Positions 3,573-63,092 of a stretch of 64,000 bases of DNA are shown in pieces. The stretch's first letter is position 1; each line of letters starts with the position of its first letter. The position numbers were made by a program, and so were the translations under genes. Source of the DNA: a phage; the sequence record PX880099.1, one strand, 5' to 3'. Under the pieces are notes generated by a model, which saw only the letters and a list, made by a program, of their open reading frames with translations, was not told the DNA's origin and did no database searches.

Positions 3573-4082
3573 TTAATAAAAACTCTTGACAATCCTCATC
3601 ATTTCCTTAGCTCTGCTGGCATAAGGTTCTTTTAGATTAGGTGGCAAATGTGCATTAATGTATCCCATTTGTTTTTCCCATGTCCACTTATCTTTAAATC
3701 TTGGCATGGTATCTCCTGCTAAACTGTTTTCTTTTCGTGTTTGAATAATCCAATTACATGGAAAATGCACACCACCTTTACGGAAGGGAATATAATGTCC
3801 CAATGTGAATGCCTTATTGTTCTTTAAACGTCCAGCTAAATTAAGATTAACAATAAGACTACGAAACACATAGTATTGATAAAGATTGTCAACAGTATAT
3901 ACAGAGTAGTATGCTCTAAGTGCATTATCTCTACTAAGATTACCAACATCCAAACTGCACCAGTTTAAATTACTTGGATCATAGTTGTGATTATCAATCC
4001 ATTCTTCTCTTTCCTCAAATTCTGCATTAACAGCAGATTGCCCTGCTGTAGATACAAAAAGAGAATTTGCATCAAAGAACAT
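3573..4082 (-). CDS. hypothetical protein
   Basis: 169 aa ORF, SD AAGGAGGGAG before ATG. Confidence 0.55.
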   Translation of the reverse strand: MFFDANSLFVSTAGQSAVNAEFEEREEWIDNHNYDPSNLNWCSLDVGNLSRDNALRAYYSVYTVDNLYQYYVFRSLIVNLNLAGRLKNNKAFTLGHYIPFRKGGVHFPCNWIIQTRKENSLAGDTMPRFKDKWTWEKQMGYINAHLPPNLKEPYASRAKEMMRIVKSFY

Positions 4083-4092
4083 ACTCCCTCCT

Positions 4093-4446
4093 TTAGTTTA
4101 CATCGTTTAGAGCATTACCAATCTTTAAGATAATAACATCGTTAAGGGCTTCTTCTCCATTAAGGCCAGAGAAAGCAGGAGTAACGAAAGTTACCATATA
4201 ATAATGGTCTTCTTGTAGGATTGCGATAACGCCGTCTAGTTTAACATCTCCTGTGAAACGAAAAACTTTCAACTTTTGTTCTAAAGGAAGATCTCCTTCA
4301 ACATTTAAAACCATATCTCCAACACCAAACTTTTCTGCCCCGATGTAGATGTAAGCTTGGTCCTCTTTTTTATGATAATACAGTGTTGCTTGTTTGTCTT
4401 GTAGTGTTGTGATACCAAACACATCTACATCAATAATATTTTTCAA
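4093..4446 (-). CDS. hypothetical protein (probable TTG start)
   Basis: Track ORF 4093-4503 overlaps upstream gene by 61 nt; GGAGGAG followed by TTG at 4444-4446 gives a TTGA-coupled start. Confidence 0.4.
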   Translation of the reverse strand: MKNIIDVDVFGITTLQDKQATLYYHKKEDQAYIYIGAEKFGVGDMVLNVEGDLPLEQKLKVFRFTGDVKLDGVIAILQEDHYYMVTFVTPAFSGLNGEEALNDVIILKIGNALNDVN

Positions 4447-4811
4447 AAATTCTCCTCCCAAATCCAATAATTGTCTACATAAGTAGGATGCCTTTTGTCC
4501 CACTCTTTTCTAGCCCAAGCCACGGCTGCTATCAATACATCTCCATGACAAGGTTGAGGGGAGCAGAAGCAAACTAAATCTTTCCCTTCTAGCTCTAATA
4601 AATCTTCAAGAGTGATCTTACCACAACGAATTTGCTCCCACAACCACTCTTTATACCTTTGTATAGTTGATCCTCGTGGTTCATCATCTTTTAACTTAAA
4701 AGGGTTTGCAAACTTGGAGGCTTTTAGTCCCATATGTGGCATTGCTCTACCAATATAAACAGCACCTTCTGGGATTGTTTTGCCTAAATGGTAAAAGTTT
4801 AATACCTTCAT
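4443..4811 (-). CDS. DUF4326-family protein
   Basis: 122 aa; VYIGR...ANPF...CFCSPQPCHGDVL pattern typical of DUF4326. Confidence 0.65.
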   Translation of the reverse strand: MKVLNFYHLGKTIPEGAVYIGRAMPHMGLKASKFANPFKLKDDEPRGSTIQRYKEWLWEQIRCGKITLEDLLELEGKDLVCFCSPQPCHGDVLIAAVAWARKEWDKRHPTYVDNYWIWEENF

Positions 4812-8763: not shown

Positions 8764-9057
8764 ATGATGAACATTACTTTAGCAACTAAGAATATTTCTG
8801 AGACAATTAACGGTTTTGGTGTCATTGTAGCCTTACACGGTAACAACGAGAAATGGTTGGCTTCTTTTGAAGAGGATCGTCAGCACAACATTATTTTAGA
8901 TGCTCCTATAAAAGTTATGCATATCGTTGGTGAAAGCAAAGTGCTCACTTCCTCCCGTTCAAAAGAACAAATTACAAATGAATTAGTAAAACTGCTTGAC
9001 AATGTTCTTAACATGTTTGATAATGCACCCATCGATACAAAACGTGTCTTAATGTGA
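8764..9057 (+). CDS. hypothetical protein
   Basis: 97 aa ORF, SD AGAGAGG. Confidence 0.5.
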   Translation: MMNITLATKNISETINGFGVIVALHGNNEKWLASFEEDRQHNIILDAPIKVMHIVGESKVLTSSRSKEQITNELVKLLDNVLNMFDNAPIDTKRVLM

Positions 9058-12438: not shown

Positions 12439-13899
12439 GTGCCAAAAATAGTCACTTGGGAACAATATAAAACAGATATAAAACAAGCTTATCAAGGTAA
12501 GTCTTGGACTGTTGTAGATTATATTGAGCCGTGGAACGGCAATAAAACTAAACTTAGATGCATCTGTGCTCTGCATGGAGAATGGAAAACAACAAGCATA
12601 AATACCGCTAAACTAGGGAGGGGTTGTCCAGAATGCGGTAGGGAGATTATAAGTAAAGCAGTATCTATAAACAAATCAAAAACCTGGGAGCAATATAAAG
12701 AAGAAGTGCAAACCACTTACAATCAGGCAGGTAAGTTTTGGACTGTTACAGGATGGCACGGAGAATGGAAAGGATGGAATACTAAACTGGTTTGTTGTTG
12801 TGCTTTACATGGGGAGTGGAGGTCTACTTCTATATCTTCTGCGAAAAACGGGAGTGGATGCAGGAAGTGTATGGGAGAAGCAAACAGAGAAAGAACATCG
12901 ATTGCATGGGAGCAATATAAAGAAGAAGTAGAAGAAGCTTATAAAGAAAAACCCTGGATTGTTAGAGGCTATGTGGAACCGTGGAACGGTTCCCGCACTA
13001 AGTTGATTTGTGAGTGTAAGGTTCATGGTCAATGGTGCACTACCACTGTAAACAGTGCTAAACAAGGGACTGGATGCTACAGTTGTCAAAGAGAAATGAC
13101 GAAACAAAGGAATACAATGGAGGATAAACAACATGTTGAAGATTTTATAAAAGCTTGTCCTGATAATGTAGAGCGTAAATATTATCGTAGCGATAGAGTA
13201 GATAGATTAGGTCGTCAGGTTTACTGGATTGTAGAATGTCCTATATGTGCAGAGGATGATTATTGTAAAGAAGGCTTATGCGATAATAAATTTGAGATGA
13301 AGATGAGTCATTTGAAAAGGGGTGGCCTTCCTTGCCGTTGTTCTAAATATTATCATTACACTCCTGAACAATGGGCCTACCGTATGACCAAAGCTTGCCA
13401 GGAACGAGGGGATCAATTTATAGGATTCATTGATAAGGTAAGCAATAACAGCAAGTTTAAATATCTATGTAGGGAGCATGGAGAGCAAACGATCACACCT
13501 ACCGATTATCTCAATGGGAAAGGTTGTCCAGGCTGTAAGAACAGAAATATGCAAGAATTTTACATCAATATTATTCTTGATGAGTACGGAGAAGACACGG
13601 GAGCTTACAAGTTGGGGATTGCAAAGGACAGTGATATCAGGATCAAAGGGCAGAATGCAAACAACAATTACTCTATGCGCCGTATAGCATTGTTCGATCT
13701 GCCGTCCTACCAAGCTTGCAGGGCGTTAGAGAGTAAGCTAAAGTCTAAGACTGATCAGATTCTACCGTCTATTGGCTGTGTAGAACGCTTGCACATGAAA
13801 GATGGTCATAGTGAAACCTTCCTGCGCGAGGATTTGGCTATCGTCTTAAGTGCTATCAACCAAGCAGGTGGAATAATGAGAGAGGAGGAAACATGTTAG
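12439..13899 (+). CDS. cysteine-rich protein with three tandem about 70-aa modules, probable zinc-binding (GTG start)
   Basis: Module WEQYK...EPWNG..TKL.C.C..HGEW.T......G.GC..C repeated three times, then a Cys-rich C-terminal half. Confidence 0.55.
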   Translation: MPKIVTWEQYKTDIKQAYQGKSWTVVDYIEPWNGNKTKLRCICALHGEWKTTSINTAKLGRGCPECGREIISKAVSINKSKTWEQYKEEVQTTYNQAGKFWTVTGWHGEWKGWNTKLVCCCALHGEWRSTSISSAKNGSGCRKCMGEANRERTSIAWEQYKEEVEEAYKEKPWIVRGYVEPWNGSRTKLICECKVHGQWCTTTVNSAKQGTGCYSCQREMTKQRNTMEDKQHVEDFIKACPDNVERKYYRSDRVDRLGRQVYWIVECPICAEDDYCKEGLCDNKFEMKMSHLKRGGLPCRCSKYYHYTPEQWAYRMTKACQERGDQFIGFIDKVSNNSKFKYLCREHGEQTITPTDYLNGKGCPGCKNRNMQEFYINIILDEYGEDTGAYKLGIAKDSDIRIKGQNANNNYSMRRIALFDLPSYQACRALESKLKSKTDQILPSIGCVERLHMKDGHSETFLREDLAIVLSAINQAGGIMREEETC

Positions 13900-14271: not shown

Positions 14272-14451
14272 ATGGCACGTTTAGCAGATCATGAAATCTT
14301 TAAACCTATTCTGAACCACTATGATGAACTTAAAGCAGTGTTGGATTGTTATAGAGAGGATGAAGAACGTTTGGAAGTCAATCTTAAGATAGTTCTGATG
14401 AAAGCTTTTCAAGACGGGCAAGCTAAAGTTTTAGAAGGCATGAAAAAATGA
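14272..14451 (+). CDS. small hypothetical protein
   Basis: Start re-picked to ATG (MARLADHE) after AAAGGAGAA. Confidence 0.45.
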   Translation: MARLADHEIFKPILNHYDELKAVLDCYREDEERLEVNLKIVLMKAFQDGQAKVLEGMKK

Positions 14452-14990
14452 GAATAACTGATGAATATGTATTCTTCTTTTCACATAAAGATGTGTTTAG
14501 TAATTGGTATATTGCACCCTTTACAGAAACTGAACCAGGTTACAATGAGACTTTCTGTTGTGTTGAGCAATATATGATGTGGCGTAAGGCTTTGCTGTTC
14601 AAGGATCATGCGATTGCAGCAGCTATCCTTGATCACTCAACTATACGTGACAACGAGAGGAAACAAGCATACTACAAACGTATGGGTCGAGCGGTATCTG
14701 GTTTTAATAATGATATGTGGGAAGAGAACCGTGAGCGTATTGTTATGCGAGGCTTATGCTTGAAATATGTACAGAATCCAGATTTGTATGCAGACTTACA
14801 CCTTTACCAATACAAAACGTTTGTTGAAGCAAATCCTTACGATAAGGTTTACGGTATTGGAATGGGAATGTATGAACCAGGGGTGCTAAACCCTGCTACC
14901 TGGAAAGGGCAGAATCTTTTAGGCAAATATCATAATAAACTGATCGAAATACTTTTCCCAGACAAAATACCGCAAAGACGATATTTGTGA
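14448..14990 (+). CDS. NADAR-domain (YbiA/DUF1768-like) protein, candidate ADP-ribose-processing enzyme
   Basis: 180 aa; FFFSHKDVFSNWYIAPF, CVEQYMMWRKALLF, W..NRERIVMRGLCLKY.QNPDL, GIGMG...W.GQNLLGK match the NADAR pattern. Confidence 0.7.
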   Translation: MRITDEYVFFFSHKDVFSNWYIAPFTETEPGYNETFCCVEQYMMWRKALLFKDHAIAAAILDHSTIRDNERKQAYYKRMGRAVSGFNNDMWEENRERIVMRGLCLKYVQNPDLYADLHLYQYKTFVEANPYDKVYGIGMGMYEPGVLNPATWKGQNLLGKYHNKLIEILFPDKIPQRRYL

Positions 14991-15233
14991 TATTTTAACT
15001 TTTTTCATTTTTAGAACAAAGGTGTCACTTTGTAGCACAGAAATAAGGCTCCTACAGCACCGTAGAGAGCCTGTTATTTTGTCCTATACAAACCCTTGTC
15101 TTTTTCAGTTTGCATCACTAGGATTCGATCTGAGTGGGTTCCTGAAGGTTTACCAATAAGATTAAAGGTTATATCAAATTCCCACTATCTTTTATCTCAA
15201 AAATCCCTCAAATTATTTAAACTTTTTAAGAAT

Positions 15234-15418
15234 TTACAAAAGTGAAAGTTGAAAACCAAAATTTAAAGTTTAGGAAAATTATCTTAAAATGTTAGATACA
15301 AAACAAAACTCAAAAGTCAAGGAAAATTTTAAAAATTTTGCGCGCCCACAGTATTTAAAGTTTTTTTGCTTTTACAAAAATGAAAGTACAAAAGCAAAAT
15401 TTAAAGTTTACAAAAATT
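15234..15418. repeat. pair of about 48-bp direct repeats (15234-15280 and 15371-15418) in an AT-rich non-coding region
   Basis: TTTACAAAAGTGAAAGTTGAAAACCAAAATTTAAAGTTTAGGAAAATT vs TTTACAAAAATGAAAGTACAAAAGCAAAATTTAAAGTTTACAAAAATT. Confidence 0.6.
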
Positions 15419-15433
15419 TTTATGCAGGTGAAA

Positions 15434-15548
15434 ATGAGAAGAGTTCTCATATGGAAATGCAAATGATAATGATTCGCATTTAAGTTTATAAATGAGATTG
15501 ATTCTTATTTAATAAGGTAAATGACAATCATTCTCATTTAGAGAATGA
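15434..15548. promoter_or_regulatory. cluster of palindromic hairpin or operator-like sites built on ATGAGAA/TTCTCAT and AATGAnAAT..ATTCTCAT (Fur-box-like)
   Basis: ATGAGAA-GAG-TTCTCAT (15434-15450), AAATGC-N15-GCATTT (15455-15481), TCATTCTC-ATTTA-GAGAATGA (15528-15548). Confidence 0.45.
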
Positions 15549-15761
15549 CGCGCAGGGGCGGTGTTTGTCTCGCGCTCCCGTGTCCACTCGCCATGTAATA
15601 AGAATAACAGATCCAGCCAGGAAAGCAAGCGATTATTTTATCTTTACATTTCTTTACAAATATATAGCACCCAGCCTACCGGCGATCAACCTTCCAACCA
15701 GTGCCCCCTGGTATGTTAGCCCCGCCTTTACGCCGTGGGGTGGCGCTTCCTCTTCTGTATG
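15541..15761 (-). ncRNA. candidate structured non-coding transcript from a GC-rich island
   Basis: Strong minus-strand promoter at 15768-15796, then about 220 nt of GC-rich sequence with several short stems and no ORF of 60 aa or more on that strand. Confidence 0.25.
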
Positions 15762-15767
15762 TAAAAC

Positions 15768-15796
15768 AGTATAAGCCCGATCCCTGGGCTTGTCAA
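15768..15796 (-). promoter_or_regulatory. sigma70-type promoter on minus strand (TTGACA-17-TATACT)
   Basis: Reverse complement reads TTGACAAGCCCAGGGATCGGGCTTATACT. Confidence 0.5.
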
Positions 15797-15798
15797 GA

Positions 15799-16065
15799 TT
15801 ATTTTTTGTTTTCTTGCCAGGATAGGACACCTAACCAAAAATACATATCGCCCCGCGCCCCTGGTGGTATCTTGCTTTCCCCGCCGCCACTGCAAGCCCA
15901 TAGATAACCATTTGCGAACGTATCAAAATGATCTATCTCTTCCACCTTATGATCGCCCAGGTTGAGAACGGTTTCAACCTTTAAGCCCGTTGCGCTTGCT
16001 ACCTGGTGCACCGTGCCGCCTTGCCAGCCCAATGAGTGCATAAGGTGTAATGTAGTATTTGTCAT
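15799..16065 (-). CDS. hypothetical protein (GC-rich, compositionally atypical)
   Basis: 88 aa ORF with upstream minus-strand TTGCTA-17-TATTAT promoter and a GCGCC..GGCGC hairpin in the leader. Confidence 0.35.
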   Translation of the reverse strand: MTNTTLHLMHSLGWQGGTVHQVASATGLKVETVLNLGDHKVEEIDHFDTFANGYLWACSGGGESKIPPGARGDMYFWLGVLSWQENKK

Positions 16066-16173
16066 GATATCGCCCTTTCTTTGTTGTGCGCCCTGGTTGG
16101 CGCGGTAGAAAGATAATAGCCCTTTTCTTTATATATAGCAAGCAAAAAGAAAATAAAAAAGATTGAAAAATGG

Positions 16174-16230
16174 TTGACGTTAACCAGGCGGCGGCGTAGT
16201 ATTCATCTTGTAGGGCGGCAATGGTGCCGC
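16174..16230 (+). promoter_or_regulatory. PeSL-like cassette 1: early promoter plus GC hairpin
   Basis: TTGACG-N17-TAGTAT, then GCGGCA-ATGG-TGCCGC. Confidence 0.6.
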
Positions 16231-27283: not shown

Positions 27284-27302
27284 AATGATAACCATTATCA
27301 TC
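27284..27302. promoter_or_regulatory. near-consensus Fur-box-like site
   Basis: AATGATAACCATTATCATC, 15 of 16 positions match the core of GATAATGATAATCATTATC. Confidence 0.4.
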
Positions 27303-28037
27303 TACCCATGATTATCTATGCAATATAAGCGCATAATTATAATGTTGATAATAGTTCGCAACAACTAACCAACAAACAACATAAAACAATAAGCAAACTA
27401 ATCATAATCAAAGGAATAATAGCAAGATGATTGATAACGACAAACAATCAAACCATGATGAATACTAAGCAAGATAACGATAACACGACAAAACAACCAA
27501 CTAACGAACAATAACAAACGAAACCATTAAAATAATAACTATTAGCAAAATAGTGCATGAATGAAATCATTACAAAACGAATCATTCATAGAGTCATCAT
27601 TAGCACGCTATGCCGGACACATAGCGAGCTAATAATAAGCCAACTACACCCCAACAATCATAACCATCGGTGATGGTTATTTCTTGTTACTGCGTAGCTT
27701 GCAATAATTGCAAGCGTAATGACGCTTACACTTATTGCGCTGGCTTATTATTAGCATTATATGTAATTACCAAGATCATAACATTAGCGCAATAACAATA
27801 ATCATTGTGGTAATTACGTAAGGAAACAATTAGCATGGCAATAATTATGGGGGCAATGGGAGGATGATTATCATCATTCCGATACATTGCACACTATGCA
27901 CATAATAGAATAAAAAGCAATAATTTTGGGGGCGAAATGTTACCGCCACAGGCGGGAATGTTGAGCAAGTTCTCTTAAACGTAAATAAAATCAGAATAAT
28001 CTTGATTTATTTTAGTTTTTATGTTAATAAACGTTTA

Positions 28038-28056
28038 AATAATAATCATTCTCATA
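28038..28056. promoter_or_regulatory. AATGAnAAT..ATTCTCAT motif copy
   Basis: AATAATAATCATTCTCATA. Confidence 0.35.
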
Positions 28057-28215
28057 TAAATAATAGTCTGCTTGTCATGAGCGGGATTAGTTGACAATGT
28101 TCCGTCATATGATGAGGTTGCCAAGCCATTGATAAATAAGTGTTTGTGTGATTTATAATCAGGTGGCCCACCTTGTCGCTATGTTGGCATGAGCCTTGCA
28201 TAAGTCATTGAATAC

Positions 28216-28236
28216 GAATGATAATTATTCTCATTC
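28216..28236. promoter_or_regulatory. palindromic AATGAnAAT..ATTCTCAT motif copy
   Basis: GAATGA-TAATTATTC-TCATTC. Confidence 0.4.
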
Positions 28237-39272: not shown

Positions 39273-39301
39273 GAGAATACAGCAATGGTTTAGGAGTGGT
39301 T

Positions 39302-39973
39302 ATGAAAAAGTTTGTTGTTTACAGTCGTCTTTCTAAACAGAAAAAAGGTGAGGCACAATATGGTATGGAGAGCCAAGAGAATGATATCCGTTACTTCTTA
39401 GACTCTGTGCCTGATGCGGAAGTTATTGGTCAATTTTCTGAATACTATTCTGGTAAGGGCGATTGGAAGCAACGTAAGGAACTGGTTAAAGCGGTTGAAA
39501 TGTGTAAAGCTACCGGAGCAACTTTATTGGTAGCTAAAGTTGACCGCTTGGGTCGTAACAACGCCTCCGTAGCAACTCTTCTGGAGATGATCGATGTTAA
39601 GATAGCCATCATGCCAGACGCAGATAAAATGGTTATACAGCTTCTATCTGTTCTGGCTGAACAAGAAGTTAGAGGTATTGCTGATCGTATTAAAAAGGGT
39701 CTTGCTGTAGCAAAAAGTAAAGGTGTTTTATTAGGTAGTGCTAATCCTAAAACTGCCGCTGCACGTAGAAAAGGAAAAATGGAATACAACTCTGTTAAAG
39801 CAGACGCTTTTGCAGAGACATTCCGTGAACGCTTGGAGATCCTTAGAGATTTAAATACACCTTACAAAACTATTGCTGAAAAATTCAATAGTAAGAAAAT
39901 AGCAACAGCACGTGGTGGTAAATGGGATGCTAAAACTGTTTCTCGTTTGTGTGCCAGACTTAACATTAAATAG
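39302..39973 (+). CDS. serine recombinase (resolvase/invertase family)
   Basis: 223 aa; VVYSRLSKQ catalytic-serine region, LLVAKVDRLGRN, C-terminal HTH-like segment; ATG after AGGAG. Confidence 0.6.
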   Translation: MKKFVVYSRLSKQKKGEAQYGMESQENDIRYFLDSVPDAEVIGQFSEYYSGKGDWKQRKELVKAVEMCKATGATLLVAKVDRLGRNNASVATLLEMIDVKIAIMPDADKMVIQLLSVLAEQEVRGIADRIKKGLAVAKSKGVLLGSANPKTAAARRKGKMEYNSVKADAFAETFRERLEILRDLNTPYKTIAEKFNSKKIATARGGKWDAKTVSRLCARLNIK

Positions 39974-46790: not shown

Positions 46791-47606
46791 TTATTTGTTT
46801 AAGTGGTCTTCGACCATTTTAATGAAACCTTCATTGCTGAAGGCTGTTGCAGCTTTTTCTCGGTAAACAAAAACTCCACGATCTTCATAGAGAAGTGTTT
46901 CTTCGTAATTAACTCCAGGGTTAACTACAACCATTTTTGTACCCATACTAAGCGCAGGGAATAATTCCCAATTAAAATTGATAACTTGGTTTGAACATCC
47001 TACTACTACAACCAAATCTTGCATGGTCAAAGTATCGAACAAGTGAGCCATATCTGCATACAAAGGTGCAGCCTCACCAAAAAATACAACATTAGGCTTC
47101 ACCCAGTTATAATCATCTATGTTTATACTATTGTAACCAATATCTACCAGTGTTTTGTAATCTCCAGGATGCATACGGTAAACTACTTCAGGAAGATATC
47201 CGTGCACGTGAATAACAGAATCTCTGTCTACACCTGCTCGCTCTAATAGATCATCAACGTTTGTCGTCAAGTTTACTACTTGGTTAGGATATTCCTTAAA
47301 CCACTTTGCTATTTGAATATGTGCAGCATTAGGTTGTACATCTTTAAGCTCAACACGTCTTTTGTTATAAAATTCGTGTGTTTTGGCATACAAATCCATA
47401 CCGTTCTCGTCTACACCACCGACCACTGGAAGATCTGGAGATGTTCTAACACGATAACCTGCTTGGAAAGCTCCAATATCGCAGACCTCTTCTAAATCAT
47501 ATTCTTCCCATAAGGCACGACCACTATCGGTGTCTGTTCGGAATGTTCTAATCCCACTATCTGCACTTAAACCTGCACCGCTTACAAAAATCACTCGTCT
47601 TGGCAT
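46791..47606 (-). CDS. Sir2-family (sirtuin-like) NAD-dependent enzyme lacking an obvious zinc ribbon
   Basis: 271 aa; FVSGAGLSADSGIRTFR, TTNVDDL, VIHVHG, VVFFGE, VVVVGCS. Confidence 0.7.
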   Translation of the reverse strand: MPRRVIFVSGAGLSADSGIRTFRTDTDSGRALWEEYDLEEVCDIGAFQAGYRVRTSPDLPVVGGVDENGMDLYAKTHEFYNKRRVELKDVQPNAAHIQIAKWFKEYPNQVVNLTTNVDDLLERAGVDRDSVIHVHGYLPEVVYRMHPGDYKTLVDIGYNSINIDDYNWVKPNVVFFGEAAPLYADMAHLFDTLTMQDLVVVVGCSNQVINFNWELFPALSMGTKMVVVNPGVNYEETLLYEDRGVFVYREKAATAFSNEGFIKMVEDHLNK

Positions 47607-58094: not shown

Positions 58095-58853
58095 TTAAAT
58101 AAACACTTCAGTAATCAGTTTAGACAAACGTCCACGTTTATTATCGTCCGTTGTCAGTTCAACGTATCCAATAAAATCTACAATTGGCTCACGAACACCT
58201 TCTTCATTTTCTGGATACAAAAGTTCCAAAATTTGATGCAGACCATTGCTACGTTTTTTAATTGCATATGTCTGGCGAACATCGCCTAATACAATAACAT
58301 GCGTATTAATACCTGCACGTTCAATAAGAAGTTTAAGTGTTTCTGTTGACATAAGTTGTGCTTCGTCAATAATGACGATTGTATTATCCAGGGTAGCCCC
58401 CAACAAATAGTTAGGAATATTCAATTCGATCTTACCTGATCCAATATCGTTTTCCAATTTGTTGGCTGTCATGAATTGCTGGAAAATACGTTTTGTAGAT
58501 TCATAGTGTGCTGCTAGTTTATCTGTTTTATCCCCAGACAAGAAACCAATCTGGTCATCTCCGACTTCAGTAGGGTTCTTAATAAAAAGTAGTTTACGGA
58601 AGTCTCCTGAACGAAGCATCTGCAAAGCTTTCCATAAAGCAACAGAGGTTTTACCAGTCCCTGCCGGAGCATTTACAACAGTCAGATCATTCCAAATCAT
58701 ACTTTGAACAATCTTATTTTGGTCCCCTTCAGGCATAAATTCATCTAAACGGTAATCGTCATTACCTACCGCTTTTGCTGCATAACGGCTTTCAATCTTT
58801 GCTGAATTAGCCAGTTTCTGCCGTTGTGTTTTAGCTGCGGTTTTATTTCCCAT
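58095..58853 (-). CDS. phoH: PhoH-like ATPase
   Basis: APAGTGKTSVAL Walker A, IVIIDEAQLMS Walker B; ATG (MGNKTAA) after AAGGAG; track N-terminal extension overlaps a terminator hairpin. Confidence 0.8.
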   Translation of the reverse strand: MGNKTAAKTQRQKLANSAKIESRYAAKAVGNDDYRLDEFMPEGDQNKIVQSMIWNDLTVVNAPAGTGKTSVALWKALQMLRSGDFRKLLFIKNPTEVGDDQIGFLSGDKTDKLAAHYESTKRIFQQFMTANKLENDIGSGKIELNIPNYLLGATLDNTIVIIDEAQLMSTETLKLLIERAGINTHVIVLGDVRQTYAIKKRSNGLHQILELLYPENEEGVREPIVDFIGYVELTTDDNKRGRLSKLITEVFI

Positions 58854-58867
58854 AGTAGCACTCCTTT

Positions 58868-58886
58868 TAGAAGGGGCCGAAGCCCC
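58868..58886 (-). terminator. hairpin GGGGC-CGAA-GCCCC downstream of lysozyme gene
   Basis: Identical stem-loop to 46759-46781. Confidence 0.45.
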
Positions 58887-58890
58887 TTTA

Positions 58891-59391
58891 TTAGTTGTAA
58901 GCATCTAAAGTTCCAGAAGTCAGAACTTTAATTACTCGTTCAGCACGGTTTGGCGTCTGGCTATACCATCGGCTTTTACGCATGTTTTTACCTGCTTGAG
59001 TATAATATGCATTGCTGATTAAAGTCAAGCTATTTTGAAACCCTTCAGCACCTTTTAACCCCAACTGGAAAACCATGTTGATTATTCCCAATTTACGAGT
59101 ATCACTAACCTTATCATAGATTGGTGATAAGATAGTACTGTTTTTTATGTCTCTCTTCACTTTTGCAACATCGTCAGCAAAGATTTGACGGGCTTCTTTT
59201 TCTGTGATAACTCCATTAGTCTTACGACCAAGAAGATTATCTAAGATTTGAATAGCCTTTGCTTTATCTTTTATTTTAGTCAGAAGGTGTCCTATGCCGA
59301 CTGTCCAATAACCAAGATGGTCTTGATAAACAGTAAGCTTCAGTCCTTCATCGACTCGTAGCATATCAAACTCATCTACTACTTTAGCCAT
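58891..59391 (-). CDS. T4-type lysozyme (endolysin, GH24-like)
   Basis: LRVDEGLKLTVYQDHLGYWTVGIGHLLTK, INMVFQLG, KSRWYSQTPNRAERV closely parallel T4 lysozyme. Confidence 0.85.
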   Translation of the reverse strand: MAKVVDEFDMLRVDEGLKLTVYQDHLGYWTVGIGHLLTKIKDKAKAIQILDNLLGRKTNGVITEKEARQIFADDVAKVKRDIKNSTILSPIYDKVSDTRKLGIINMVFQLGLKGAEGFQNSLTLISNAYYTQAGKNMRKSRWYSQTPNRAERVIKVLTSGTLDAYN

Positions 59392-59553: not shown

Positions 59554-59814
59554 TTACTCCGCAATTTGAGCCATGAGATCACGCAGTTCGGTAAAACCGC
59601 CTACGTATGTTACCTCCCCGTTCACTTCAGACAGAATTTGTGGAAATGTGCGTGGAGGAACTCCGGTAAGATCAACAACTGTTTTAGTCATTGATTCTAA
59701 ATCATAGTCTTGGTCAAGACTTAAATATTCAAACTGTTTATTGCGCATAGTCAATAGTTGTTTTGACATTTCACAAAATTGACAGTTAGGTTTACCAAAA
59801 ATTACAAATTCCAT
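59554..59814 (-). CDS. nrdC: glutaredoxin-like protein (NrdC-type)
   Basis: 86 aa; CQFC active-site CxxC, GGF..LR C-terminal region. Confidence 0.7.
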   Translation of the reverse strand: MEFVIFGKPNCQFCEMSKQLLTMRNKQFEYLSLDQDYDLESMTKTVVDLTGVPPRTFPQILSEVNGEVTYVGGFTELRDLMAQIAE

Positions 59815-60656
59815 TACCTCTCCTTATTAAGTAATACTGCTAAAGACTGTTCAATACCTTTATTTAAATCTGATTTTGTAAGATAGTGACTGGTTACTAG
59901 TTGTGACTTCACCGGACGTGCTGCTGGAGCATTATAGGTTGAAGCTGATACCGCCGATATCTTAACAGGTTCTGGCATCTGTGTCAAGATCTTTTCCGCA
60001 AACTCCGCCCAAGAAATAAGATGGCTTCCTGCAAAATGGTAAGTCTTAACAGACCTTGACCAACCTGTTTTTAATACTTCAAAAATAGCTTCTGCTAAAT
60101 CTGGAGCATATGTTGGACAAGAGAACTGATCAGCAACAATAATAAAATCACGTTGTCCATCATTATAGCGAGACAACATGGTTTTTAGAAAGTTATTTCC
60201 AAATTCGCTATATACCGAGGCTGTTCGAATAATATATGCATTTGGGTTAACTCCTCGCACCATTTTTTCACCAAGTTCTTTCGTATACCCATAATTGTTT
60301 ATTGGGTTAGGTGTAGTATCTTCAAAAATAGGATGAGAATAATTAAAAATATAGTCTGTGGAAATATGCACAAAATCAATTTTAAGTTTGCTGCACACTG
60401 CCGCAATATTTGCAGGGCCATAAGCATTAACAGCCAAAGCAGTAGCAAAATCTTGTTCGGCTTTATCTACAGCCGTATAAGCGGCGCAATTAATAACACC
60501 ATCTACATAATCTTCAATAATAGCGTTTCGCACAGCTTCAAAATTTGTAATATCTACACGTTCTTTAGGATAAATTAAAGATACATTTGCAGGGGCAACT
60601 TTACGTAAAGCTTGTCCCAGTTGTCCATTACCACCCAATACCAAATATGTTAGCAT
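59814..60656 (-). CDS. rmlD: dTDP-4-dehydrorhamnose reductase
   Basis: LVLGGNGQLG Rossmann N-terminus, overall RfbD/RmlD pattern; last gene of the four-gene operon. Confidence 0.85.
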   Translation of the reverse strand: MLTYLVLGGNGQLGQALRKVAPANVSLIYPKERVDITNFEAVRNAIIEDYVDGVINCAAYTAVDKAEQDFATALAVNAYGPANIAAVCSKLKIDFVHISTDYIFNYSHPIFEDTTPNPINNYGYTKELGEKMVRGVNPNAYIIRTASVYSEFGNNFLKTMLSRYNDGQRDFIIVADQFSCPTYAPDLAEAIFEVLKTGWSRSVKTYHFAGSHLISWAEFAEKILTQMPEPVKISAVSASTYNAPAARPVKSQLVTSHYLTKSDLNKGIEQSLAVLLNKER

Positions 60657-61216
60657 ACACCCTCGCTACGTAACTGTTGAAAAGATTTAGCCATTGCATC
60701 TTTTGTTGATAGGATAGGTTTAAAACCTTCATCAAAAATCATATCGAAGCCCCAATCGATCCCTATATCAGGATCATCCCAACGTAAACTTTGTTCACTA
60801 GAAGGGTCGTATGGAGTTGTGCATTTGTATTCAAAGATAGCATCCATACTCAAAACTATAAAACCATGTGCCAAACCAGGTGGAAGCCAAAACTGCGTAT
60901 GGTGTCGTGCACGAAGAACAACACCGTCCCAAGCACCGTAAGTAGGACTATCTTTACGTAAGTCTACAGCGAAATCCAATACTTCACCACTTACACAACG
61001 AACAAGCTTACCTTGCGGATTATTTGTTTGAAAGTGCATTCCTCGCAAAACACCGAAGTTTGATTTAGACATGTTATCTTGAACGAAAGTTTGTCTACCA
61101 ATAATATCTTCGTATTTTTGTTCATTATATGTTTCTAAAAAGAAACCACGGTCATCTTTATAAACGTCTGGTTTGATAATTACCGCACCTTCAATTTTTG
61201 TTTTTTCTACTTTCAT
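60650..61216 (-). CDS. rmlC: dTDP-4-dehydrorhamnose 3,5-epimerase
   Basis: ATG ([10 protein letters not shown]) after GGAGGGAAA; [24 protein letters not shown] cupin motifs. Confidence 0.85.
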
Positions 61217-62091
61217 TTTCCCTCCGCTAATTTGAGTAGGTATTGCCCGTACTCTGTTTTCTTCAGTGAGTTTCCATGATAGACCAAAGTCTCTAAAGAA
61301 ATCCACCCTTTTTTGAAAGCAATTTCTTCCAGGCACGCAATCTTCAATCCTTGACAGTTCTCAATAGTCTGCACGAATTGACCAGCTTCCATCAGACTGG
61401 CGTGTGTTCCTGTGTCAAGCCAAGTAAATCCTCGTCCGAGAACTTCTACTTGTAACTTCCTGTCTTCGAGGTAGCTGCGATTGATATCGGTGATCTCCAG
61501 TTCTCCACGCGCGGAAGGGGTTACTTCTAATGCACGTTGAATAACAGAGTTATCATAGAAATACAAACCTGTGACAGCATAATCTGATTTAGGATTTTCA
61601 GGTTTCTCTTCAATAGAAATAACTTGACGATTACTCCCAAATTCAACCACACCGAATCGTTCAGGATCTTTCACCAAACACCCGAAGATACAAGCTCCGC
61701 CCCAAACATCTACCATCTCACTAGCGTTAATCAGTAGTTTACCAAAGCTTTGTCCGAAGAACAGGTTGTCACCTAAAATAAGAGCAACAGAGTCTTCTCC
61801 GATAAAATCTTTACCGATGATGAAAGCGTCCGCAAGACCTCGTGGCTCGGATTGGATTGCGTAAGTGAGTTTTATCCCAAACATAGACCCATCTCCAAGA
61901 AGATGCTCAAAGTCTTCCTGATCGCCTGGTGTGGTGATGATTAAGATATCCTTAATGTCAGCCAACATCAATACCGATAAAGGGTAGTAGATCATGGGTT
62001 TGTCATACACAGGGAGCAATTGCTTGCTCACACTGCGTGTTACCGGATGAAGGCGGGTTCCACTTCCTCCCGCCAAAATAATACCTTTCAT
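61213..62091 (-). CDS. rmlA: glucose-1-phosphate thymidylyltransferase
   Basis: [18 protein letters not shown]...LGDN, full-length RmlA pattern. Confidence 0.9.
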
Positions 62092-62099
62092 AACCCTCC

Positions 62100-63092
62100 T
62101 TAAATCTTCTCACTCCACCATTGAGGGTTGTTTAAGTACCATTCAATCGTTGAGTAGAGATCTTGTTCAAATGTAGAGTTTGCACTCCAACCCAGTTCAG
62201 ACTCTATTTTAGAAGGATTGATTTCATAACGCAAGTCATGTCCTTTACGATCTTCAACAAAAGTTATCAAGTTGGAAGAAGGGTAGGTTCCTGCTTCTGG
62301 ATGTACAGCATCCATGTAGTCACAAACCATATAGATGATCTCCATATTGGTTTTGGGATTACGTGTTCCAACATTATACGTTTGACCTGGTTCTCCACCT
62401 GTTGCCACTTGAAGAATAGCTCGCGCATGATCCTCAACAAAAAGCCAGTCTCGCACCTGATCGCCTTTACCATACACCGGAATCTCTTTATTCGTCAAGA
62501 TACTTGTGATGATTTTTGGGATCAGCTTTTCTGGATGTTGATAAGGTCCAAAGTTATTGGAGCAGTTGGTTATCACAACAGGTAAACCGTAGGTACGGTA
62601 CCAAGCTTTCACAAGATGGTCAGATGCTGCCTTAGACGCACTGTACGGGCTTGAAGGGGCATAAGCTGTCTCTTCGGTAAAGGGAACGCCAGAGTCTGCC
62701 ATATCGCCGTACACTTCGTCTGTGGAGACGTGTACGAACATCTTCAGTTTATTTTTTGGGAGGAGCCTTGCAGCTTCCAATAAATTGTATGTGCCAATAA
62801 TATTGGAGTCGATGAAAACTCGTGGATTCTTGATAGAATTATCCACATGACTCTCTGCCGCTAAGTGAATGATGAAATCGGGATTGCACTCTACTACTAA
62901 ACTTTTGACCTGGGTTTCGTTTGCCAAATCTGTTATGCTTAGTTTAACGTGAGTGATATCGCCTACATTCTCAATATCTGCTGCATAGCCCATCTTATCA
63001 ACGACAAAAACTTCGTTATTGGGATCTTGACAAAGAGAGCGCACCACGGCACTCCCAATAAAACCAAGACCACCTGTTACCAGATAGCGCAT
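62100..63092 (-). CDS. rmlB: dTDP-glucose 4,6-dehydratase
   Basis: [22 protein letters not shown] catalytic triad region. Confidence 0.9.

Follow-up and report, generated by a model that had tools for sequence, protein, structure and literature searches.

A stand-alone NADAR-domain protein of a phAPEC8-like Escherichia coli phage, predicted to counter DarTG1 defence

INTRODUCTION

The gp30.3 protein of phage T4 (AdfN) is an orphan NADAR that strips the ADP-ribose installed by the toxin DarT1 off phage DNA (Johannesman, Carlson, LeRoux; PMC11257639, PMC11825919). Two unrelated phage NADARs, AdfN^Bas32 and AdfN^Bas60, neutralise DarT1 when no phage is present and allow RB69, T5 and Bas25 to plate again on DarTG1 hosts; the thymine-specific DarTG2 is countered by none of the three phage NADARs (T4, Bas32, Bas60) (PMC11825919). 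Here we describe a NADAR-domain gene in a stretch of phage DNA of 64,000 nucleotides (nt) taken from record PX880099.1, which is called the window below. The sequence places the window in the genus Phapecoctavirus (Stephanstirmvirinae), as part of a phAPEC8-like E. coli phage. The 4 kb around the gene share 99.8% identity with Escherichia phage phAPEC8_ev052, as they do with many other Phapecoctavirus genomes. We consider it probable, at roughly 0.7, that the window protein acts as a stand-alone ADP-ribosylglycohydrolase, an AdfN-type orphan antitoxin that would serve as counter-defence against DarTG1.

RESULTS

A genuine NADAR gene

The gene and its product were compared with domain models, structures and phage records.

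14448..14990, plus strand: NADAR-domain gene, an ATG-to-TGA open reading frame (ORF) of 180 amino acids (aa) plus stop

The 180-aa product matched the Pfam NADAR model PF08719 with E=1.7e-34 and 119.8 bits (gathering score 35.1 bits) over model positions 3-154 of 163. It scored 111.9 bits with TIGR02464, 'riboflavin biosynthesis intermediates N-glycosidase', exceeding the trusted cut-off of 73.7; this is a domain-level model by which YbiA and general NADARs are not distinguished. PHROG 1017, labelled 'unknown function', was matched at E=3.7e-51 and PDB chain 8bau_A at E=2.9e-12. The sequence-only reading had named a NADAR-domain protein at exactly this ORF, and these matches bear it out.

At 85% nt identity or more the gene was present in 71 phage records, and at the protein level in 719. 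Compared with the phAPEC8 allele it is 88% identical in nt and 89.5% in aa, with a ratio of nonsynonymous to synonymous change (dN/dS) of 0.17, and it is under purifying selection. Because of the family matches, the conservation in phage records and the dN/dS of 0.17, 14448-14990 is a genuine gene under selection and a chance ORF is excluded.

In various GenBank records the gene is labelled 'hypothetical protein', 'GTP cyclohydrolase II' or 'YbiA-like N-glycosidase'. The label 'GTP cyclohydrolase II' is a carry-over from RibA-NADAR fusions. Identification of the product as a NADAR thus corrects a widespread mis-annotation ('hypothetical protein', 'GTP cyclohydrolase II') in public records. As a separate observation, NADAR genes 88-99% identical to the phAPEC8-like or phi92-like versions occur in the 'Campylobacter phage' records MG065639, MG065645, MG065650, MG065656 and MG065689, and the 'Acinetobacter phage' record OP562383 carries one 90.7% identical to those of E. 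coli phages. The host labels of these records look doubtful.

Fold and active site

An AlphaFold2 model of the protein, built with 63 homologues as input, had a pLDDT of 95.5 and a pTM of 0.89. The modelled chain adopts the alpha+beta NADAR fold, and its significant structural matches were NADARs only. Residues were mapped by a HMMER alignment to 8bau_A, whose chain numbering is the paper numbering plus 2. This is the NADAR of Phytophthora nicotianae (PnNADAR), for which the ADP-ribose-binding and catalytic residues are E43, K50, K75, G78, R79, V81, Y84, D86, W89, R93, E125, D130 and W133 (Schuller et al., PMC11543638). In the same order, the window equivalents are E40, K47, K77, G80, R81, V83, F86, N88, W91, R95, E127, D132 and Y135, so that each of the 13 ligand or catalytic positions is identical or conservatively replaced. 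Three segments of the gene, placed by this alignment, hold the residues in question.

14565..14588, plus strand: motif VEQYMMWRK, codons E40 (14565-14567) to K47 (14586-14588)
14676..14732, plus strand: ADP-ribose pyrophosphate and adenine binding loop, codons K77-R95
14826..14852, plus strand: motif EANPYDKVY, codons E127-Y135 (E127=Pn E125, D132=D130, Y135=W133)

The catalytic trio E40, K47 and E127 is present. E40, K47, G80 and W91 are invariant in 64/64 homologues, and E127 and D132 are each retained in 63/64. The sequence-only reading had proposed checking the NADAR catalytic glutamates, with loss of the active site as the outcome against it; both glutamates and K47 are in place. E40/K47 correspond to E43/K50 of PnNADAR, to E88/K95 of the E. 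coli C7 NADAR and to E36/K43 of T4 AdfN, with residue roles as described in PMC11543638 and PMC11257639. K77 aligns to K115 of the C7 NADAR, which is dispensable in vitro and essential for DarT1 rescue in vivo (PMC11543638). NADARs of the YbiA and general types carry a glutamate at the position of Pn E125 (PMC11543638).

The counterpart in phage Bas60

Over 172 residues the window protein shares 56% identity (E=3e-67) with bas60_0111 (QXV83846.1), annotated as 'putative YbiA-like N-glycosidase' and the sole NADAR match found in the Bas60 record. Bas60 is Escherichia phage PaulScherrer, a Justusliebigvirus. We had considered Bas60-62 as phAPEC8-like and rejected this, the BASEL paper giving them as phi92-like; the window and Bas60 proteins are thus counterparts at 56% identity and not one and the same protein. 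We infer that bas60_0111 is the AdfN^Bas60 of Johannesman et al., because of its locus tag and because one matching place was listed per phi92-like record. On this similarity and a shared gene order, the window gene appears to be the Phapecoctavirus counterpart, or orthologue, of an experimentally validated anti-DarTG1 factor. No discussion, plating or deletion data for the Phapecoctavirus copy were found in the literature searched.

Placement among other NADARs

Scored with a profile of the clade of the window protein, PnNADAR reached 140 bits and YbiA 77 bits. No match of this profile to the DarG1-type 8BAT sequence was obtained at E values up to 10. The PHROG 1017 clade, with 719 records, belongs to big myoviruses: rV5-like phages, Herelleviridae (of Staphylococcus, Listeria, Enterococcus and Bacillus) and Lak phages. 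In PVP-SE1-like phages a 41-43%-identical homologue lies in a different module, amid genes for DNA ligase, an exonuclease, a RuvC-like protein and EndoVII, a setting that is DNA-centred. Direct kinship to T4 AdfN was set aside, since the two align only marginally (hhalign probability 26%, E=7e-4), and a phmmer search of T4 gp30.3 against PDB returned nothing relevant.

Cellular relatives, 35-43% identical, are widespread in actinomycetes, Firmicutes, Brachyspira and Bacteroidota. Their loci were collected in a search seeded with an alignment of 14 closer sequences. In at least 12 of 80 cellular loci the NADAR gene is adjoined by genes for NrtR (a Nudix-type, ADP-ribose-sensing regulator), bacterial PARG or an ARH-type ADP-ribosylglycohydrolase. 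Such loci (L022, L026, L029, L033, L039, L053, L056, L070, L077, L079 and L086, with the match at ~4001-4460 in full-length loci) look like putative ADP-ribose-processing operons with a stand-alone NADAR. This cellular context therefore favours ADP-ribose substrates and disfavours a role in riboflavin metabolism. The window protein also matched the PADLOC model PDC-M42C, component C of an uncharacterised phage defence candidate system, at E=5.4e-35, which points to cellular relatives as members of a candidate defence or toxin-antitoxin-like system. The contexts of two metagenomic homologues, P0062 and P0054, inspected for an ADP-ribosyltransferase (ART) partner, were viral-looking.

A mosaic patch inside the NADAR gene

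Identity to phAPEC8 along the gene was followed in a sliding comparison, and one segment stood out.

14598..14747, plus strand: mosaic hypervariable segment of the NADAR gene, ~codons 51-100

This segment is only 71% nt identical to phAPEC8, compared with 93-100% for the rest of the gene and its flanks. Over codons 51-92 the proportion of synonymous differences (pS) is 0.80, which is saturated, and that of nonsynonymous differences (pN) is 0.23; elsewhere in the gene pS is 0.13-0.26. Among Phapecoctavirus alleles, residues 52-72 come in at least four haplotypes. Part of the patch is a loop that PnNADAR lacks and that flanks the ADP-ribose-binding loop, and the ligand-contact residues within the patch are unchanged. 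From these patterns, the patch looks like an old, diverged segment that was exchanged by recombination, and not like a case of demonstrated positive selection.

Transcription unit and neighbouring genes

The NADAR gene closes a co-directional string of ~15 rightward genes, which starts at a divergent junction near 8769. Two elements border it.

14272..14451, plus strand: 59-aa ORF upstream of the NADAR gene (phrog_22330), with a PHROG match and annotated in near-identical records
15040..15083, plus strand: hairpin and U-tract ~50 nt 3' of the NADAR gene, RNA fold -16.4 kcal/mol, z=-4.59

The NADAR ATG overlaps the stop of the 59-aa ORF (ATGA, 14448-14451), which implies translational coupling of the two, and GAAGG at 14434-14438 may be the ribosome-binding site. 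None of 200 shuffled sequences folded as well as the hairpin, and the phAPEC8 record carries an ARNold terminator annotation at the corresponding place. The hairpin is probably an intrinsic terminator that ends the NADAR transcription unit. The position at the end of an operon, which had been read from the letters, thus agrees with the gene order, the ATGA overlap, the hairpin and the phAPEC8 annotation. Early expression from host-type promoters is suggested by sigma-70-like promoter matches upstream of the gene.

The neighbours of the NADAR gene are an AAA ATPase, a 486-aa CapR-repeat protein and small ORFs without assigned function. Among the adjacent genes scanned, no ART, DarT-like or DUF4433 domain was found. 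Because no cognate DarT or ART gene adjoins it, the window protein is an orphan phage NADAR. No functional link to its immediate neighbours was found either, and the Justusliebigvirus locus lacks the two small upstream ORFs. The 59-aa ORF is absent from that locus and hence is not an obligate partner of the NADAR.

The CapR-repeat gene (12439-13899, plus strand; five repeats, Pfam PF21817 at 1.1e-28, PHROG label 'endonuclease') is the upstream neighbour of the NADAR gene in both Stephanstirmvirinae genera. It is ~50% identical in nt to the phAPEC8 allele and differs from it in length (1461 versus 1185 nt); the allele has therefore been replaced.

The ORF-poor block downstream

Beyond the terminator-like hairpin lies an ORF-poor block (15327-16221) with 84-85% nt identity between Phapecoctavirus and Justusliebigvirus, compared with ~71-75% or undetectable identity in the flanking coding genes. 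Its core, 15432-15540, holds four 7-1-7 palindromes, TGAGAATNATTCTCA-like, at an exact spacing of 29 bp (15435, 15464, 15493 and 15522). They look similar to the E. coli Fur box, which they match at up to 15/19 positions in the window, and one of the units in phage 4MG has the perfect Fur core TGATAATCATTATCA. The array is kept across the rV5-like supergroup (phAPEC8, Bas60, PHB05, Cronobacter phage CR3 and phage 4MG), and it is also present in T5-like phages, in their left-terminal-repeat 'injection stop' region beside DnaA boxes. A second cluster of five Fur-box-like 7-1-7 matches lies at 27286-28233 within an array of small rightward ORFs. The window as a whole has 15 such matches, versus 6.0 +/- 2.3 expected, and 0/100 shuffles reached 15.

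Scans for tRNAs and Rfam families gave no match in the window or in the gap downstream of the NADAR gene, and folding of the minus strand at 15545-15762 (z=0.07) gave no structured-RNA signal. A conserved 88-aa ORF (15799-16065, minus strand; phrog_19316, annotated as bas60_0113 in Bas60) lies inside the gap, with its own promoter-like site at 16141-16113 and a terminator-like hairpin at 15791-15773. A strong minus-strand 'promoter' at 15796-15768 is probably coincidental, since it overlaps this terminator-like hairpin.

Other genes of the window

A SIR2-family (NAD+-dependent) protein is encoded at 46791-47606 on the minus strand (Pfam PF02146, 1.3e-22); no macrodomain was present in the scanned ORFs adjacent to it. 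A dTDP-rhamnose pathway set occupies 59814-63092 on the minus strand, with an RmlD-like gene at 59814-60656, an RmlC-like gene at 60650-61336 and an RmlB-like dehydratase gene at 62100-63092; an ORF at 61213-62091 sits between the RmlC-like and RmlB-like genes. Genes for a PhoH-like ATPase (58095-58904) and a lysozyme (58891-59391) adjoin this set. A serine recombinase with a resolvase N-terminal domain (5.4e-18) is encoded at 39296-39973 on the plus strand, in what is the genome of a lytic myovirus.

DISCUSSION

Proposed function

The window protein is predicted to be a guanine-N2 ADP-ribosyl DNA glycohydrolase. By analogy, its activity and in vivo specificity would be the same as those of AdfN^Bas60. 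In the mechanism that we propose, DarT1 would ADP-ribosylate guanine N2 of phage DNA after infection of DarTG1-positive E. coli, and replication would be blocked. The phage NADAR would then bind the ADP-ribose, with the pyrophosphate held by K47, R81, W91 and R95, with F86 stacked on the adenine and with E40 and E127 positioning the distal ribose. Hydrolysis of the N-glycosidic bond between ribose and guanine would restore replicable DNA. This interpretation is supported by the ORF, the predicted fold, the conservation of the active site, the purifying selection, and the similarity and synteny with bas60_0111. The sequence-only reading had suggested a counter-measure against DarTG-type defence. 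For DarTG1 the suggestion gains from the 56%-identical syntenic Bas60 protein; it does not extend to DarTG2, against which the tested phage NADARs were ineffective.

Our interpretation carries some caveats. The T4 NADAR and YbiA are active in vitro, yet in one study they did not rescue cells from DarT1 toxicity (PMC11125620). The in vivo specificity of NADARs differs between subfamilies and is not simply predictable from in vitro activity (PMC11125620). In addition, the evidence for AdfN^Bas60 stems from ectopic expression.

A wider activity is possible, though we think it unlikely. The protein might act on cytidine and guanosine alike, freeing them of ADP-ribose in both DNA and RNA, and thereby protect against ART toxins or defences besides DarT1; candidate targets are pierisin/ScARP-like toxins, YarT-like toxins and the uncharacterised PADLOC candidate system PDC-M42. 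Enzymes of the general NADAR family and of the YbiA type do remove cytidine-linked ADP-ribose and act on RNA, and those of the DarG1 and T4 types do not (PMC12945103). By structure the window protein falls in with the general-family and YbiA-type enzymes, and it matches the PDC-M42C model. However, E. coli is not known to have an ADP-ribosylating defence specific for cytidine, and the functional data for the clade concern DarT1 only. Such an activity would extend the action on DarT1 without excluding it. It is similarly doubtful that the Stephanstirmvirinae NADAR is a broad eraser whose recombining, hypervariable surface patch at ~52-90, with at least four haplotypes in phages that otherwise hardly differ, is the trace of an ongoing arms race against host factors or other ART-based defences such as PDC-M42.

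Far less probable is that the protein degrades soluble ADP-ribose derivatives (cyclic ADP-ribose isomers, ADP-ribose-1''-phosphate, O-acetyl-ADP-ribose), be they immune signals or by-products, released by NADase-type defences of the host or by the phage's own NAD-consuming SIR2-family protein. Iyer et al. (2022) argued for such substrates from genomic context, a SIR2-family protein is encoded in the window, and cellular relatives are co-located with the ADP-ribose-sensing NrtR. That proposal is older than the biochemistry, in which cleavage of such signals has not been seen for any NADAR. The opposite strand carries the SIR2 gene, at a distance of 32 kb, and AdfN^Bas60 alone suffices to detoxify a DNA-modifying toxin.

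Least probable of all is a YbiA-like housekeeping N-glycosidase that destroys reactive riboflavin intermediates or related ribosylamino-pyrimidines during infection; involvement with riboflavin intermediates was one alternative raised in the sequence-only reading. The TIGR02464 score, the YbiA-type glutamate E127 and several GenBank labels ('GTP cyclohydrolase II' or 'YbiA-like N-glycosidase') speak for it, but the first of these labels is inherited, riboflavin genes were found neither beside the gene nor among the window ORFs scanned, the protein is stand-alone with no RibA or RibD fusion, family profile and model are nearer PnNADAR than YbiA, the cellular relatives lie beside PARG, ARH and NrtR genes and not rib genes, and AdfN^Bas60 was placed outside the YbiA-like group by Johannesman et al.

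Counter-defence against DarTG1, the function that we favour, leads to the prediction that phAPEC8-like phages would be intrinsically resistant to DarTG1-type defence. These phages are popular candidates for therapy and biocontrol against avian pathogenic E. coli (APEC), Shiga toxin-producing E. coli (STEC) and E. coli producing extended-spectrum beta-lactamases (ESBL). Conceptually the window gene adds little, since orphan-antitoxin NADARs against DarTG1, the sister-genus protein included, have already been published (bioRxiv 2024, Nat Commun 2025).

Comparison with known NADAR systems

E. coli YbiA (PDB 2B3W) differs from the window protein in being a housekeeping riboflavin-intermediate N-glycosidase in a LexA-controlled operon, and it did not rescue cells from DarT1 toxicity when assayed. 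The NADAR of Phytophthora nicotianae var. parasitica (PDB 8BAU; Schuller et al., Mol Cell 2023) is eukaryotic, unlike the phage protein, which carries an additional loop at ~62-70 and is shorter in the 140-152 region.

NADARs of the DarG1 type (E. coli C7; G. lovleyi, PDB 8BAT) share with the window protein the fold, the Glu/Lys pair and the lysine equivalent to K77, and they carry out guanine de-ADP-ribosylation, the reaction predicted here. They differ in that DarG1 lies in an operon with DarT1, whereas no DarT-like gene adjoins the window NADAR, and in that their third catalytic residue is Asp (C7 D171) and their length ~230 aa, features absent from the window protein.

T4 AdfN (gp30.3), the first of the anti-DarT factor NADARs of phages, resembles the window protein as an orphan phage NADAR with an E-x6-K motif (E36/K43 versus E40/K47), and it counters DarTG1. 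It belongs to a separate 'phage NADAR' family with His at the third catalytic position (PMC11543638). When expressed ectopically it is active only with T-even phages, DarT1 is not neutralised by T4 AdfN alone, and cytidine-linked ADP-ribose is not removed by it (PMC12945103).

The closest likeness is to AdfN^Bas60. The two proteins differ at 44% of residues, the 26-35 loop is shorter by 7 residues in the window protein, and in Phapecoctavirus the CapR-repeat and NADAR genes are separated by an insertion of two small ORFs; the functional data come from the Bas60 protein. Both are stand-alone proteins of ~180 aa with the motifs VEQYMMWRKA, YYKRxGR and FVEAxPYD in common. Both genes follow the AAA ATPase and CapR-repeat genes and precede a long conserved ORF-poor gap, and both host phages belong to the Stephanstirmvirinae.
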